Source: Kondoa subrosea
Taxonomy: Eukaryota
Length of the DNA stretch: 64,000 nucleotides
Assembly (NCBI GenBank): GCA_039545335.1
Contig: BCIN01000001.1
Span: 2,545,136-2,609,135, forward strand
Direction: 5' to 3'
Notes under the pieces: generated by a model
What the model was told of the DNA's origin: nothing
The model's input: the letters and a program-made list of their open reading frames with translations, nothing else
Database searches by the model: none
Made by a program: the position numbers and the translations under genes
In this document: positions 50,167-59,910 of the stretch, in pieces
Numbering within the stretch: position 1 is the first letter of the stretch
Layout: the number at the start of each line of letters is the position of its first letter

Positions 50167-50251
50167 CTCTAAATAGCTCAGTTGGCAGAGCATCAGACTG
50201 TAATGGCAACAATATATCTGGGTGTCCCTGGTTCAAATCCGGGTTTGGAGA
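50167..50251 (+). tRNA. tRNA-Tyr (GUA) with a 12-nt canonical intron (50204-50215)
   Basis: Cloverleaf: acceptor CTCTAAA/TTTGGAG+A73, D stem GCTC/GAGC, anticodon stem TCAGA/TCTGG with CT-GTA-A, T arm CCTGG-TTCAAAT-CCGGG. Confidence 0.96.
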
Positions 50252-54206: not shown

Positions 54207-57200
54207 ATGAATCCTATTCCATCTGCTTCGTTGTTGCCAGATGAACGAGGAGGTGGTAGTAAGAGGAAAAGAGTTGCCGTATGCCGCCCGCTCACTCGCT
54301 TATCACGGCCGCAATTGATAAACTTCTGGTTGTTATAGCTTTCTTGTTCTGAATGCAAGCGACGCAAGATCAAATGTAGCAAGACTATACCCTGTGAGGC
54401 TTGCACCAAGCGAGGTGAAGAGCATGACTGCAAGTGAGTTCTTTCGGGGTCATGTAGCTTGTTTAGCACGTTTGATCGATTTGGTTGTTCCGCAGGCCAG
54501 AGTTTCAAGTCCGTAGAGATGAACAGCAACAGCAACAGCAGCGAAGCACAGCTATCCTGCCTGTAGACGAGCTAGTCGCTATCAAAGCACGTCTGGCTGC
54601 TTTGGAAGTTGCTGTCTATGGAAATGGTGTTCACAACGGCTTCACAAGTCCGCCTCCACTGAATATGAGTATGAACTCTGTTGCTTCTCCTCCCGTTTCG
54701 AGATCTCGAGAAGATCCAGATAGGTGAATAGTCCTGTGTTGATTTGAATTAAGCTGATTGAACCAATCCGCAGCGATACCGAACAAGCTGCTGTAATACT
54801 AGAGTGTGTTCTCACATATGTACCTAGAGATCTTGGCTGATTCCAATTTCAGAGACATGAGTTTGGGTCAGTCTATTCTGATCAGATAATTGCTGCGAAA
54901 GCTAACACACATATCAGTGGGAGTCGGTATTCAAGCCGCTGGTGCTGGAGTGCAATGCCCGCCACAAGCAGTACAAGCAGCTCCAGGTTCCGACACAGTA
55001 TGCTCATCTACTCAGATCCACCGACTTAGACTGAAAAGAGCTTTGCACAGCTCTTGACGAACGCACAATCGCTGAGCTCGAATTCTCCAGAAGGCGTCTT
55101 TTTGCTCAAAGCTTCCTTTCGCGAATCCGTTATTGCCATGCTACCTACCAACGCGCAAATCGCCATTCTGGTCGGTCACTACTTTCAGAATCTAGCCTGG
55201 TTCGCACACGTCATTTGCAAACCGCAGCTTGAGAATGGTGAGTACCTTGTATACGACGTTTGCACGACTTTGATTCGTCCACACCAGAATTGAGAGAATT
55301 CTATATCTTGCGAGAGCGAAATGCTACCAATTCCATTGATGTAGCTTGGCTAGCTCTTCTTTTTGCTGTCTTGCATCATTCTATCCGATCCATGGCTCGT
55401 CTATGTATCAGCCCGATGGAAGGCATAGCGCAATCAGAATACATTGATCTCGCCAAGAAATGGCTCGAAGGAATGAAGGCAGCGCTATATTTGGCAGACG
55501 CTTTTCAAAGAGCACAAATCAGATGTATTCAGGCTTTGGTATGCTGCACTGGCGGTCCAGTGCGATAGATTGTTGACGTTCGATTTAGCTTTTGTTCGGC
55601 CCTGGAGCAGTAATGGGAATGGGTCAGAACGATGGTACAGACCTAACGATTTGGCGAAGTGCTACAATTCGATTGGCAATGTCACTCAATCTGCACAAGC
55701 TAGGAACGGACGAGAACAAGATGCCGAATCCAGATCAATCTCTGCCACCAAATTCTTCCCTTGCTCGCCAAGTACGATATTGTCCTCCTCTACGTACGAT
55801 AAACTGACCTTTATTGCAGATTGGATGTCGGATTTGGTGGCAGTGGGTGACTCCCATTTTTCACCCTCACTAGCTGACTTAAGTGCACAGTATCATTGTC
55901 GTAGACTGGATGGCAGCAGCTCACAAAAAGGGAGAACACTCAATTCTAGAGGGCTCTTTCGACACTCAACCACCTCTACACTGTAACGACTCCGATCTTG
56001 GTTTACATCCGCATCTTGAGGCACGACCGGAACGTGGGTTAAAATATCTAACAGGAGCATTTCGTGACGCTGACATCGCCTGTAGTGGAATTGACTGATA
56101 CTTCATTTGACTTGGTATACCGTCTGTCTCGCAACTTGAGTCAACTGCTGACAACCCTTTACAGGCAAAGATTCAATTGGCTTCTCATGCTCACGCCTGC
56201 GCTCAATTGAAGGAACGGGGCGAATTGACCTATGATAAGGTTTCCGAGCTTGAGGTTGACTGTCGCAATATGTCTGCTACATTCCAAGAGCGCATTCGGT
56301 TAGCAAAGCAAGGACCCGATAAGCCATATCACCTTCAAACTCACTGGTTGGCAACGTTGACCTTATCAGGTATGTTACATCGTTCGATGACTTGAATGTC
56401 AAGATGTTAAAGTCCCTACGACGGAAGGCTTGAACAACCGAGTAGGCTTTATAAGAGATACCTTCAATGATGTTCTAAGCCGTGGTCCAGGTGCTTCGTC
56501 TACACCGTCCTTTCTTGCACAAGGCTTTCCGAAACGAAACTTATGCAAGGTCTATACCGATCTGCGTCGACGCTGCATATAGGATAGCAGAATGCTTTCC
56601 GATCGTTACTAGCCCTGCTGCAACTTTGGGACAACCGCCGTTCATTAGTACGCAATTTTTGAACTTCGCGGTCTGCTCACTCAACGGTTCCGCATAGTGC
56701 TGCACAACTTGAACGCAGGGATTGCTCTTTCAACCTTGCTTCTTTGCAGCTTATCCCTGCCTGAAGACAATCCACATATTGTTTCGCACCGGCACCATCT
56801 CAACCTGATTGCTGAAACGCTTGAACGTTGTTGCTTATCTGAAGATCCTCCTTATCGCGCTTTGGCCAAACGTTAGTGGTCTCTTTCACTAGCTGAATGC
56901 CTCTAATGCTGCGTCTTAGATGTCTTGTTGACGATAAGAACTTTGATTGACGTGGAGGCCGAAAGAAGGCGAAACTCTTCAGCTTCGTCCAACAGATCGC
57001 TGGCGGATGTCTTCAAACAAGTCGCTACTGTTCATAAGGACTCGAAAAATGACGTGTCACCATCGACTTCGGTTGTCAGCCCTAGTGCCTCTTCTCAGAC
57101 ACCTTCGGATGAAGATCCAGCAAAAATGTTGGCGGATCTAGGTCTCTTTCTGGTCCGTGCTCTCTACTATGTTGAACTTTGCTGATACTTTGTGAATAAC

Positions 57201-57429
57201 ATCAGCCACCCCAAAATAGTCCGGGCAGCAGTTGGTTGGACTCGTCTGCACCTGCTGGCAATTTCGATCAAGATATCAGTCTGGACTGGGTGAGCTCCTC
57301 CAATTCCATCCTGGTGGTCATTATCATTGAGCTTCTGCATAGGAACAACTCATGTTCGGACCAGATCAGTTTTCGTTTGGGCAAGACCAAATGATGTTTG
57401 GCATGCCTACAGCGGCGTCAGGGTTTTGA
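54207..57429 (+). CDS. Zn(II)2Cys6 transcription factor with a fungal-specific middle domain
   Basis: CSECKRRKIKCSKTIPCEACTKRGEEHDC; WLALLFAVL, AIRL-like ATIRLAMSLNLH, LRLHRPF; many introns; stop TGA 57427-57429. Confidence 0.92.
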
Positions 57430-57692
57430 AGTTTCGGTCTAAGAGGTTGTACATTAGGGTCTTTGTATATTGCAATATGAGAACGGATTGAGGCAGACAT
57501 GACTGAACTTTCGCCATAATACAATGTGTTGTCTGAGCTATACTCTCGCGGCGGGCGACGAATTCAACAACATTTGAGGTGATCAGGACCGCACAAGCAC
57601 CATACGATAGCTTTAGAATAAAGTGTAATCTGGAGATAAAGTGGGTCTGGCCAATACAACTGTAAAGCGCAGTCACAGCACCCAGCGCAAAA

Positions 57693-57837
57693 TTTCCGGA
57701 GCGTAAGTCGAACTGAATGCTTCAATGAGTCCCAGGATTCAGTTGAGACCGATTGACTTGAACTTACCCCGCGACACCCAGATGGATGAAAGTATGCCAA
57801 TTACAGTCTGATGCTCTACCAACTGTGCTATCCAGAG
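57693..57837 (-). ncRNA. Diverged tRNA-Tyr(GUA)-like gene with a 17-nt anticodon intron (57800-57784) and a 55-nt GT-AG insert in the T arm (57767-57713)
   Basis: Minus strand: CTCTGGA TA GCAC AGTTGGTA GAGC A TCAGA CTGTAA [ttggcatactttcatcc] A TCTGG GTGTC GCGGG [gtaagt...cattcag] TTCGACT TACGC TCCGGAA A TTTT. Homology to the tRNA at 50167 is evident; function (tRNA, derived ncRNA or pseudogene) is unresolved. Confidence 0.8.
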
Positions 57838-58556
57838 ACGCTGCTGATGGATGATCTTCCGCATTCACAAGAAGTCAATCTCATTCAACGTATTCTGTAA
57901 GAATTTTCGGAGATCAGGCTCGAAGGTGTTTCCCGCGATGATGCGTTTTGCTCGTCATCACCTTCAGTTTTGCGGTTTGAGCTAGTCTGACGATAGCTGG
58001 TTCGTGTATCATCGAGGATCAGAGATGGATTTCACTGGAATAAGATCGATACGGGCATATAATTGCAGCCAAGAGATATCAACAGCGCTACGAAATGAGC
58101 TAGCTGCCTACTGTCGGTCTGTGCAAGTGTCACGGCCGCATTTTCATGCCAGGCAAAGAGCATGAATATCTGAGCAAGCGGTTGAGTAAGATCGCAAATC
58201 GATATGCGCAAGTGGAACGCCGGACAGTGAAGGCTTAGTAGAAGAAGGAAAAAAGAGCAGGTGGAATTTGCGAAAGAGCAAGACAGGGAAGGCTGTGCCA
58301 CTGAATGCATACAACTGAATGTATATGATGATCAATACCAGAACTGAAATCCCGACGTTGAAATGAACCAGCCTCGCTAATCGGCAGGACTGCAGATTAA
58401 GGAACAGAGGTAAGGTGTGACGGTGCCCAGCACTGTGGGAAAGTACCGGCAGAGTAGGTGCACCTATTTGTTGCAGAAGTTGCCTGACCGACCTGATTGT
58501 GTCTTGGTCCATTTCAGCCGCTCTATGCTTGTTCTGGTACCACTATCCTGCGCATA

Positions 58557-59910
58557 ATGCTTCTCCTACACGCCTGCTCTTACGTGGCAGCAGTGATCGC
58601 TTTCGTGTTCTGCACGCTGTCGTTGGGTAAGAAAGAGCCGCCTTTAAGACGATCACTTTTGCTAAATTACGCGGTACAGCGAGCGGACTGCTGTACATAG
58701 CAGAAGTCATCGAAGAACACACTAAGCTAGCCAAACTTATAGGACAGCGTTTAATCTACGCGGTTATTGGCTTTCATGTCCTTCTCTACTTTTCAGATCA
58801 TCTACCTTTGCATCTCATTCTCTTGGGCATCCTGTGTCATGCAGCTTACCTTACCAACCTGTCGACAGCGACTTGGCCTTTCATCTCCCTTTCTTCCATC
58901 AAGTTCCTCGCATCCTGCTGTCTGGTCCTGCTCGATCACTTTGCATGGTTCTTCTACTTCGCCGACAGAGCAAAGAGTATAGAAGAGAGTGCAGCAAGTC
59001 GGTTTAGACACGGGCGAACTCCTTATAGGCCAGCATGGGACGCAGGAATGACAAGAGGGAGAGCAGACGAACCACTCAGCTTTATGGATGTGGCTACTTT
59101 CTTTGGCGTCTGCGTCTGGCTTGTACCCTTCTTTCTCTTCCTCAGCTTGAGTGCAAACGATAATGTTCTTCCATCCCAAGGTGAGATTACTTCGCTTATC
59201 GTATCTGCAACATGCTGATACCTTCCTCAGCTGGAGCGGCTCCAACTGCAGCTCAAGTAGCAGCAAATCCAAAGACGGCAATGAATGGCGGCAATGGCTT
59301 AAGCCTCAACACCGCAGCATCTAGAGCTCTACCACGCGCTTCTATCCTCAAATCTATTCTCATCAATCCCCTTCTTTCACTTGTGCCCAACCTCCGGAAT
59401 CAAAATCGCTCTTCTCGATCTCAACGCGAAGGTCTAATAGCTTCACCTCGATTGCACAGTCGTACAAACTCAGGCAACACTTCCCCAACTTTTGGCAGTT
59501 TTCAACCATACATCAATGGCGGTCCACCTTCTGCCCCTTCTTCTCCTTTACAACAATCCAGAATGAATGGCAATGTATTCAGTAATAGTCCGCCTTTAGG
59601 TCGAATGCCGCCAATGAAAAGATCTCAGACCAGTGCACCAGGTCTACAAACTTCGCCGCACCATAATAGCAGTATTTTAGGAGGTGGACCAAGATCACAA
59701 TCACCTACTCCACAGAATGGTCTTGGTCAAGACATTGGTCAAGATCTGGGCTCTGGCAAAGTTTTACGAAGAGTAGCTAGTGGTAATGCTTTCCAAGGCG
59801 GATTGGGCATTTCTCAAGAAGACAGTAACGTAGGTGATTATAACGGGTCAAGAAGTAGTAGTCCAGCACCTCGAGCGTCTTCCTTGACGATGAAGAAAAG
59901 GACTGATTGA
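58557..59910 (+). CDS. SVP26: Svp26/Erv26 (TEX261) ER-Golgi cargo adaptor with a long disordered tail
   Basis: FCTLSLASGLLYIAEVIEEHTKLAK, TWPFISLSS, LLDHFAWFFYF, ATFFGVCVWLVPFFLFLSLSANDNVLP. Confidence 0.92.

Follow-up and report, generated by a model that had tools for sequence, protein, structure and literature searches.

A spliceosomal intron-like insert between two T-arm nucleotides of a probably decaying tRNA-Tyr(GUA)-like gene in Kondoa subrosea

Can an intron of the kind removed by the spliceosome reside in a nuclear tRNA gene, and is the gene that holds it still a working one? In the textbook view, a eukaryotic tRNA gene carries no more than a single intron, which is removed by a protein endonuclease, according to passages of PMC8450103 and PMC10275265, and the relevant part of PMC5855946 gives spliceosomal introns in noncoding RNA genes as known only for snRNAs and rRNA. 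Searches of the open-access literature turned up no nuclear tRNA gene described as holding a spliceosomal intron. The question is raised by a tRNA-Tyr(GUA)-like gene on the minus strand of a 64-kb stretch of the Kondoa subrosea genome (contig BCIN01000001.1 of assembly GCA_039545335.1; hereafter the window), where direct reading of the sequence places tRNA positions 1-73 together with two inserts at 57693..57837. The element occupies a gap of about 1.3 kb, with a plus-strand gene ending near 57185 on one side and the Erv26 gene starting near 58500 on the other. A first-pass annotation had described a minus-strand gene with a 17-nt intron at the 37/38 site and a 55-nt insert running from GTAAGT to CAG, followed by TTTT, and this anatomy is seen directly in the sequence.

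All parts of the element are encoded on the minus strand. Exon 1 (57801..57837) extends from C1 to A37 and comprises the 5′ strand of the acceptor stem, the D arm, and the 5′ strand and loop of the anticodon stem, with the anticodon GTA at 57804-57802. The intron that follows (57784..57800) has the type removed by the tRNA endonuclease and occupies the canonical 37/38 site; ARAGORN reports it at 38-39 with a length of 17. Exon 2 (57768..57783), from A38 to G53, contributes the 3′ strand of the anticodon stem, the variable loop GTGTC, and the 5′ strand of the T stem, GCGGG. Between G53 and T54 lies the 55-nt spliceosomal-type insert (57713..57767), with GTAAGT at its 5′ end and CAG at its 3′ end. 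Exon 3 (57693..57712) runs from T54 to A73 and supplies the T loop TTCGACT, the 3′ strand of the T stem (TACGC), the 3′ strand of the acceptor stem (TCCGGAA), and the discriminator A73. Immediately 3′ of A73 is TTTT (57689..57692), the sole run of at least four T's within 400 nt downstream. The D arm of exon 1 (within 57801..57837) includes an intact, A-box-like TAGCACAGTTGG. Since the 55-nt insert splits the B box, the latter reads AGTTCGACTTA in the DNA, a poor match to the B-box consensus.

An intact tRNA-Tyr(GUA) gene on the plus strand of the window (50167..50251) served as reference. It is detected by ARAGORN and by Rfam RF00005 (52 bits; gathering score, 29), has a 12-nt intron and standard pairs throughout its cloverleaf, and is followed by a T7 run. 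Positions 7-38 of the tRNA-Tyr-like gene match the reference at 30 of 32 nucleotides, and exon 2 matches it at 11 of 11 over ATCTGGGTGTC. The 17-nt intron begins TTGGCA, and the 12-nt intron of the reference gene begins TGGCA. Comparison of the stems bore out the compensatory changes originally proposed at 5-68 and 6-67 (A-T in the reference, G-C here) and at 49-65 (C-G and G-C, respectively), and added a further one at 51-63 (T.G and G-C). Compensatory differences account for 8 of the 15 differences between the two tRNAs, which shows that the lineage of the tRNA-Tyr-like copy was long under structural selection. The copy is redundant, because an intact tRNA-Tyr lies 7.5 kb away.

The 55-nt insert was compared with the 37 ORF-joining introns of the window, which were scored leave-one-out using signal matrices derived from the window itself. 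These introns are 44-72 nt long, with a median of 51, and the insert therefore does belong to the size class of the window's mRNA introns, although that class is broader than the 47-62 nt first given for it. The donor of the insert scores 9.3 bits, above 36 of the 37 introns; its branch, at 6.1 bits, outscores 25 of them, and its acceptor, at 5.1 bits, outscores 26. The summed splice-signal score of 20.6 bits exceeds that of 35 of the 37 introns and is reached by 31 of 14,090 other GT..AG pairs of 44-72 nt. The best branch candidate is ACTGAAT (57737..57743, minus strand), whose branch A is located 26 nt from the 3′ splice site. It falls within 8 nt (57737-57744) whose complement matches the 3′ junction at 57711-57718 without a mismatch. 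GACTCAT, the branch-like sequence initially singled out, corresponds to the second candidate, ACTCATT (57724..57730, minus strand), which would place the branch A 13 nt before the 3′ splice site. CTCA-type branch words are present among the ORF-joining introns, and ACTCATT stands as a candidate at 4.8 bits but is outscored by ACTGAAT at 6.1 bits. A point against intron capture is the insertion site, GGG|TT, which is not a good proto-splice site; the insert is devoid of any run of four T's. Set against the introns of the window, the insert rates as an excellent U2-type GT-AG intron.

How readily such a match arises by accident was gauged by placing each of 127,890 genomic 55-mers at the insert's site. 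Excision from GT to AG restored the same product for 876 of them, of which 12 reach the median score of the real introns and 4 reach the score of the insert; these 4 include the insert itself and probably also real 55-nt introns. The match to an intron is thus beyond chance, a random insertion being as good about 3 times per 100,000. These counts weigh against a reading in which a dead tRNA-Tyr copy gained 55 nt of unrelated DNA, through repair filler or local duplication, that merely starts with GTAAGT and ends with CAG, and we regard this as unlikely. It draws some strength from the selection of the element out of a very large scan, in which rare coincidences are expected somewhere, and from the decayed look of the host.

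The same reading could also appeal to internal complementarity. ACTTAC at 57703-57708, spanning tRNA positions 58-63, complements the GTAAGT of the insert exactly, which places GTAAGT on the plus strand at 57703, and the opening 16 nt of the insert show 75% complementarity with the 3′ junction; both could reflect fold-back copying rather than a splice signal. The insert also resembles the downstream flank weakly (20 of 51 positions ungapped, p = 0.019 in a register picked post hoc), and one of four comparisons relates it to the upstream flank (p = 0.035). Filler DNA copied from the flanking sequence is not borne out, since the four alignments, with p values of 0.035-0.087, are not significant after correction for four tests. 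Tandem duplication of the 3′ part of the tRNA is likewise unsupported by local alignment (p = 0.33 and 0.87), and Tandem Repeats Finder returned no rows at the element. Within the 64-kb window we found no other copy of the insert or of the 900-nt region around it, the next-best blastn match to the insert being 12 nt, and no donor intron.

Position 53/54 is a known intron site in archaeal tRNA genes, and T-arm introns are spliced in some eukaryotic compartments, as noted in a section of PMC4090602. By analogy with archaea, nucleomorphs, and Cyanidioschyzon merolae, the insert could be a noncanonical tRNA intron that the tRNA splicing endonuclease cuts out. The predicted folds do not favor this reading: minimum-energy and centroid structures of the 145-nt and 81-nt stretches contain no bulge-helix-bulge at the insert borders, which would require both borders to sit in 3-nt bulges around a 4-bp helix, and the folds are no stabler than those of shuffled sequences (z = 0.22 and 0.00). 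The 5′ border is predicted at the foot of a continuous 7-bp helix (GUAAGUU/GACUUAC) and the 3′ border in a large internal loop. Only one arrangement with a 4-bp helix could be drawn by hand, and in it the second cut falls inside the T loop and not at G|T54. We know of no fungal tRNA endonuclease that uses T-arm sites of this kind, and endonuclease removal of the insert appears highly improbable.

As it stands in the genome, 57693-57837 gives no match with ARAGORN, and Rfam finds no RF00005 match in it, either at the gathering score or, on 161 bases, at E values up to 10; relaxed Rfam thresholds return chance-level matches only (CRISPR-DR16, snoR79, SNORD104, and Ocean-VII), all far under their gathering scores. 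When 57713-57767 is deleted, ARAGORN reports a tRNA-Tyr(gta) with a 17-nt intron, but only when its threshold is lowered to 97% of default or below, whereas the reference tRNA-Tyr passes at up to 105% of default. Trial deletions that shifted each insert border by up to 10 nt (n = 441) were scored with ARAGORN at the 97% threshold, and 3 of them, representing 2 distinct products, yielded a tRNA-Tyr; the exact GT..AG deletion is among these 3, and none of the 441 passes at 100% of default. The proposal that exact GT..AG removal restores a tRNA is therefore upheld in that this deletion is the best of the 441, although its product is accepted only at the 97% threshold. At the level of sequence, the spliceosomal-type reading of the insert holds up: its length and its donor, branch, and acceptor signals fit the introns of the window, and exact removal restores the best available tRNA.

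The restored molecule departs from a regular tRNA in several places. It has the GUA anticodon and the 37/38 intron (ARAGORN, gta), and its T loop, TTCGACT, is intact. Fully paired stems of 7, 4, 5, and 5 bp with C61 are not present: C1:A72, A12:A23, and G52:A62 do not pair, and G53:T61 stands in place of G53-C61, confirming the defects listed in the first-pass annotation. A T arm of 5+7+5 had also been claimed for the spliced product, and its loop is as described; the stem is not a clean 5 bp, having three Watson-Crick pairs, one G.T pair, and one mismatch. T61, A62, and A72 all sit in exon 3. The strongest determinants for yeast tyrosyl-tRNA synthetase (TyrRS) are C1-G72 and A73, according to a passage of PMC1934993; C1 and A73 are present here, and position 72 is A.

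These features bear on a possibility that the sequence invites, namely, that the element is a working tRNA or tRNA-like gene served by two machineries, in which the spliceosome would first take out the 55-nt T-arm intron and the endonuclease and ligase would then take out the 17-nt intron. Its splice signals are perfect and stronger than those of most real introns, exact excision gives the best tRNA of the trial deletions, and the score of the product is just 3% below the ARAGORN default. The A-box-like D arm is intact, no T4 run interrupts the gene, TTTT directly follows A73, the canonical intron has been kept with a 5′ end resembling that of the reference gene, and the stems show compensatory changes. 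A precedent for a spliceosome-spliced RNA polymerase (Pol) III transcript also exists in the U6 introns of Tani and Ohshima, as cited in part of PMC5855946. Against this, C1:A72 loses a main TyrRS determinant (per the same passage of PMC1934993), A12:A23 and G52:A62 are mismatched, C61 has become T, and an intact tRNA-Tyr is nearby. Of the Pol III signals, TAGCACAGTTGG is intact, but the DNA-level B box is split and agrees poorly with its consensus, and the gene ends in T4 versus T7 at the reference. On balance, a working gene processed by both machineries seems improbable.

The host copy is probably a pseudogene, or at best weakly expressed. A pseudogene is favored over a working tRNA because the restored product falls under the ARAGORN default, has three stem mismatches, lacks C1-G72, and is followed by only T4. 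The caveat in the first-pass annotation that the element might be a pseudogene accordingly carries weight, given the 97% ARAGORN score, the stem mismatches, A72, and the T4 terminator. The four structural defects and the ARAGORN score at 97% of default are the whole basis for this label, and a gene in this state is not a badly decayed one. Counting against decay are the splice signals, all of them intact, and an insert without a T4 run, both of which a working Pol III gene would need. We give an even chance to the reading that we prefer, in which this is a redundant, decaying tRNA-Tyr(GUA) paralogue of an intron-rich fungus that captured a genuine spliceosomal-type intron.

A genuine intron might instead belong to another transcript. 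An unannotated minus-strand Pol II transcript, such as a noncoding RNA divergent from the Erv26 promoter region, could cross a fossil tRNA whose halves would then be mere exons with no role for Pol III or the endonuclease. The intergenic gap of about 1.3 kb upstream of Erv26 is a plausible place for divergent transcripts, and removal of the insert opens an ATG-started frame of 81 codons that spans the junction. Minus-strand intron-like segments are found nearby at 57997-58111 (18.1 bits) and 57335-57410 (16.7 bits), although they carry little weight, since the matrix gives false positives of 18-21 bits on the wrong strand of known exons. Minus-strand ORFs over the element resemble noncoding ORFs in codon usage (scores of −0.07 and −0.14, where the training ORFs have a median of 0.24), in what is a weak test (a true Erv26 exon scores 0.008). 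No Pfam family was found in five of the seven ORFs tested, which include both minus-strand ORFs near the element. For an intron that arose in a fossil tRNA, borders whose removal restores the tRNA with single-nucleotide precision would be unexpected, and we consider a Pol II transcript of this kind quite improbable.

For the preferred reading, a decaying copy with a captured intron, the following course of events seems the likeliest. An excised mRNA-type intron may have been placed by reverse splicing into a tRNA-Tyr transcript or into the displaced DNA strand of the gene, and the inserted intron would then have become fixed in one of several tRNA-Tyr gene copies; this route is purely conjectural, because the 64-kb window yielded no donor intron. 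The host copy is now degenerate, with C1:A72, A12:A23, G52:A62, and G53:T61, a split and weakened B box, and a terminator of T4. Were the gene transcribed, the spliceosome could take out the insert before the tRNA body folds and the endonuclease acts, and the product would even so be a poor substrate for tyrosyl-tRNA synthetase. Elements of this course have parallels elsewhere: portions of PMC5855946 describe spliceosomal introns in the snRNA genes for U6, U2, U5, and U1 as well as in rRNA genes, where reverse splicing may have brought them in, and a section of PMC11146597 reports that intron transposition has been observed in yeast and that R-loop DNA has been put forward as a target of reverse splicing. 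D- or T-arm insertions in eukaryotic tRNA genes are generally read as marks of pseudogenes, according to a passage of PMC4090602.

Relatives were sought in a metagenome scan with the neighboring Erv26 exon, which matched 173 stretches and gave 12 loci of 34-53% identity. ARAGORN found no tRNA at any of these 12 distant loci, and U4 snRNA, at 2 of them, was the sole Rfam match, a result that says nothing on conservation of the insert. By Atlas features, the Erv26 exon is nearest to clusters that are commonest in Basidiomycota (scores of 0.92 and 0.91), a lead toward a fungus and perhaps a basidiomycete, whereas the AAA exon proved uninformative.

Among known systems, one close resemblance is to the U6 gene of Schizosaccharomyces pombe, transcribed by Pol III, and the U2, U1, and U5 genes of Rhodotorula hasegawae, where a short GT-AG intron with mRNA-type signals interrupts a small structured noncoding RNA gene. 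Splicing of the S. pombe U6 intron has been demonstrated experimentally, whereas that of the insert described here is a prediction. Unlike the snRNAs, a tRNA has no role at the spliceosome active site and possesses its own protein-based splicing pathway, and this particular copy looks degenerate. Reversal of splicing is the origin usually proposed for snRNA-gene introns in the pertinent part of PMC5855946. Small spliceosomal introns also occur in ascomycete nuclear rRNA genes (Bhattacharya et al. 2000, as cited in portions of PMC5855946 and PMC6652019), which likewise are not transcribed by Pol II, and such insertions are thus not confined to the RNAs of the spliceosome. The rRNA introns differ in having a Pol I host, in their many cases, and in their conserved rRNA sites; the insert is present once, in a gene of the Pol III class.

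T-arm bulge-helix-bulge introns are known in the tRNA genes of archaea, including at 53/54, nucleomorphs, and C. merolae (described in passages of PMC4090602 and PMC3728597), and they resemble the insert in being a second, T-arm intron in a tRNA gene that also holds a 37/38 intron. They are cut by the endonuclease, unlike the insert, which has no such motif and is bordered by GTAAGT and CAG with a branch-like site. With eukaryotic tRNA pseudogenes that carry D- or T-arm insertions, the element shares its status as one of several synonymous copies and its combination of an arm insertion with stem defects; the insertions in such pseudogenes are described as short sequences that lack splice signals, whereas the insert matches the introns of the window to a degree seen in about 3 of 100,000 random inserts. 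Introner-like elements of fungi and algae, as outlined in part of PMC11146597, are similarly short (<200 nt) noncoding introns that may spread via the spliceosome, but introners exist as many near-identical copies, and the window contains no further copy of the insert.

A GT-AG intron lying exactly between two tRNA nucleotides would be a natural record of how a spliceosomal intron entered a Pol III gene, whether or not the copy that holds it is dying. Such a record bears on how new introns arise, for which reverse splicing into RNA or into R-loop DNA is discussed in a section of PMC11146597. If the gene were also expressed, it would reveal cross-talk of the two eukaryotic splicing systems on one precursor. 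Should both machineries prove to act on it, the insert would become the first case of a tRNA with a spliceosomal intron and would directly attest to the spliceosome's ability to seed introns into abundant Pol III transcripts or the genes that encode them.

The minus-strand tRNA-Tyr(GUA)-like gene at 57693-57837 consists of three exons separated by two inserts. Exon 1 (57837-57801) carries the anticodon GTA and is followed by a 17-nt intron at the canonical 37/38 site (57800-57784); exon 2 (57783-57768) ends in GCGGG, positions 49-53 in tRNA numbering; and a 55-nt insert running from GTAAGT to CAG (57767-57713) separates it from exon 3 (57712-57693), which comprises the T loop TTCGACT, TACGC, TCCGGAA, and A73 and precedes a TTTT (57692-57689). 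This two-insert anatomy, proposed in the first-pass annotation, is read directly in the minus-strand sequence. An intact tRNA-Tyr(GUA) at 50167-50251 on the plus strand is the sole tRNA-Tyr seen by standard tools (ARAGORN; Rfam RF00005, 52 bits). The canonical introns of the two genes begin alike, with TTGGCA in the tRNA-like gene and TGGCA in the 12-nt intron of the intact gene (50204-50215, plus strand), a likeness that suggests shared ancestry or constraint on the intron 5' end.

As it stands, the tRNA-like gene was not matched by RF00005 with E relaxed to 10, whether presented in 501 or 161 bases, nor by ARAGORN down to 80% of the default threshold. With 57713-57767 removed by script, ARAGORN reported tRNA-Tyr(gta) with the 17-nt intron, solely at thresholds of 97% of default or lower; the intact gene passes up to 105%. 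Each border of the insert was shifted from -10 to +10, and the resulting 441 deletions were submitted to ARAGORN at several thresholds: none passed at 100%, 3 at 97%, 4 at 95%, 36 at 90%, and 71 at 85%. The three passes at 97% represent two distinct products, and because the GT..AG product is one of these, the GT..AG borders match, to the nucleotide, those that restore the tRNA, with an ambiguity in placement of 1 nt because a G stands before the insert and a G closes it. The earlier statement that exact GT..AG removal restores a tRNA thus stands in that the product belongs to the best class of the 441 deletions, and has to be tempered in that it passes only at 97% of the default threshold or below.

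The restored 73-mer differs from the intact tRNA-Tyr at 15 positions. Eight differences are compensatory, in pairs 5-68, 6-67, and 49-65, as had been noticed, and also in pair 51-63; three lie in loops; and four are damaging, namely A12:A23, G52:A62, C61 to T (G53:T61), and G72 to A (C1:A72), the same defects that the first-pass annotation had listed. For yeast TyrRS, the strongest determinants named in PMC1934993 are C1-G72 and A73. The TTTT is the only run of at least four Ts within 400 nt downstream of the tRNA-like gene, and T7 follows the intact gene. The A-box-like D arm is intact, and the B box, interrupted in the DNA by the insert, reads AGTTCGACTTA; the A box is called intact and the B box weak by comparison with the box consensus sequences. 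The idea that this is a working gene whose single precursor is processed by both splicing machineries has the compensated stems in its favor and the four damaged positions against it, and we regard it as unlikely. The reading we prefer, at about even probability, is that a redundant tRNA-Tyr copy captured an intron and is now decaying or barely used, because it would account for the four structural defects, the lost TyrRS determinant, the weakened B box, the T4 terminator, and the intact tRNA-Tyr nearby, and because reviews treat an insertion in an arm of one copy of a eukaryotic tRNA gene as the mark of a pseudogene (PMC4090602).

To define reference introns, we searched the window, which is eukaryotic with about 46% G+C and has short GT-AG introns linking many short stop-free stretches, for GT[AG]NG[TC]...YAG segments that connect two stop-free stretches, each 50 codons or longer, and whose read-through soon meets a stop. 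There were 58 qualifying donors, of which 37 had a shortest solution of 40-75 nt; these 37 introns, surely including a few false members and missing introns beside short exons, are 44-72 nt long (median 51), so that the 55-nt insert falls in the mRNA intron size class, as claimed. Donor, branch, and acceptor matrices were trained on the 37 introns, which were themselves scored leave-one-out. The insert scores 9.3 (donor), 6.1 (branch), and 5.1 (acceptor), 20.6 bits overall, exceeding 36, 25, and 26 of the 37 introns, respectively, and 35 in total score. The window contains 14,090 other GT..AG pairs of 44-72 nt; 31 of them attain the total of the insert, and several of the 31 are probably real introns. 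Two sites are candidates for the branch: ACTGAAT, with its A 26 nt from the end, and the branch-like site recognized earlier, ACTCAT(T), with its A 13 nt from the end. In the reference introns this distance spans 10-34 nt, which covers both sites.

When every genomic 55-mer (n = 127,890) was set between the two exon contexts, a product-restoring GT..AG excision was possible for 876, among which 52 reach 12.7 bits, 30 reach 15, 12 reach 17.6, the median of the real introns, and 4 reach 20.5. Those four include the insert itself and probably also real 55-nt introns. A random 55-nt insert would thus attain the insert's intron-likeness about 3 times per 100,000. The score is not proof by itself because the same matrices award 18-21.5 bits to segments opposite known exons and on the plus strand within the tRNA-like element: 57703-57781 (plus, 18.8 bits) and 57792-57835 (plus, 19.4 bits), both opposite the tRNA-like gene, and 58756-58849 (minus, 21.5 bits), opposite an Erv26 coding exon, all probably false positives that gauge the error rate of the matrices. 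The evidential weight is in the coincidence of intron signals with tRNA borders. That this coincidence is due to chance, surfaced by a very large scan, appears improbable beside the frequency for random inserts. Because that frequency is so low, we consider it quite probable, summing over the three intron-based readings, that the insert truly is an intron of spliceosomal type, whether it arose as one or was selected to be one.

The eukaryotic tRNA endonuclease recognizes its substrates in a ruler-type manner, measuring from the tRNA body. If Pol III transcribes the tRNA-like gene, we infer from this that the spliceosome would have to act first, because the T arm, and with it the tRNA body measured by the endonuclease, can form only after the insert has been removed. 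That the insert is itself a noncanonical tRNA intron cut by the endonuclease is very improbable: the predicted folds contain no bulge-helix-bulge, the 3' border sits in a large loop, and GUAAGUU forms a continuous 7-bp helix with GACUUAC (tRNA positions 57-63). The folds are neither more nor less stable than shuffled sequences (z = 0.22 and 0.00). The GTAAGT of the insert (57762-57767, minus) is exactly complementary to ACTTAC at tRNA positions 58-63 (57703-57708, minus), a hexamer that holds both T-stem defects, T61 and A62, and that resembles the 5' end of U1 snRNA; the complementarity could be coincidence, a trace of fold-back copying, or functional pairing. In addition, AACTGAAT in the insert (57737-57744, minus), a stretch that overlaps the best branch candidate, is complementary at all 8 nt to the 3' junction ATTCAG|TT (57711-57718, minus). 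By simple arithmetic, the odds of each match at its exact place are roughly 1 in 200 to 1 in 1000; both were spotted post hoc. Neither the insert nor the 900 nt around it recurs in the window, and local tests for duplication or templated filler gave nothing convincing.

The tRNA-like gene occupies a gap of about 1.3 kb between the end of a plus-strand gene near 57185 and the start of Erv26 near 58500. An unannotated minus-strand Pol II transcript passing through a fossil tRNA would place an ordinary mRNA-type intron here, and seems rather improbable. Neither a Pfam search of two minus-strand ORFs nor codon usage, a weakly discriminating measure, pointed to protein coding on the minus strand. 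Removal of the insert opens an 81-codon ATG frame (57564-57870, minus) that begins shortly upstream of the tRNA-like gene and has a cysteine-rich tail; its codon usage looks noncoding. A weak snoR79-like match lies some 90 nt upstream of the tRNA-like gene (57922-57965, minus; 16.3 bits, with E = 1.9 and a gathering score of 80). It combines a terminal stem, GAAGG/CCTTC, with a C-box-like word, TGATGA, but lacks a properly placed D box, and is probably due to chance. A strong 64-nt intron-like segment (58454-58517, plus; 20.3 bits) lies shortly before the region of the apparent Erv26 start codon and may represent an intron in the 5' UTR or first exon of that gene. The window also encodes an AAA ATPase, whose exon was uninformative in the Atlas comparison; Erv26 itself is identified by Pfam (E = 1.3e-53), and the nearest protein clusters of its exon are commonest in Basidiomycota, an affinity that is a lead only. 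Among 12 distant Erv26 loci in the metagenome scan (34-53% identity), none had a tRNA, and two had a minus-strand U4 snRNA beside the Erv26 homolog (L011:1-107 and L012:1-115; Rfam RF00015, 52 and 60 bits), the gene being cut by the contig end; Rfam found no U4 in the window.

Capture of the intron by a redundant tRNA-Tyr copy would most plausibly have occurred via reversal of splicing, as proposed for introns of snRNA and rRNA genes (PMC5855946; PMC11146597). The nearest known precedents are mRNA-type introns in snRNA genes (Schizosaccharomyces pombe U6, a Pol III gene; Rhodotorula hasegawae U2, U1, and U5) and spliceosomal introns in the rRNA genes of ascomycetes (PMC5855946). T-arm introns of archaea, nucleomorphs, and Cyanidioschyzon merolae share the position of the insert but not its signals. 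Eukaryotic tRNA genes are described, in PMC8450103 and PMC10275265, as limited to one intron, cut by an endonuclease and not by the spliceosome, and full-text searching of the open-access literature turned up no nuclear tRNA gene described as having a spliceosomal intron. At the level of sequence, the evidence for a spliceosomal-type insert in this tRNA-like gene is solid.
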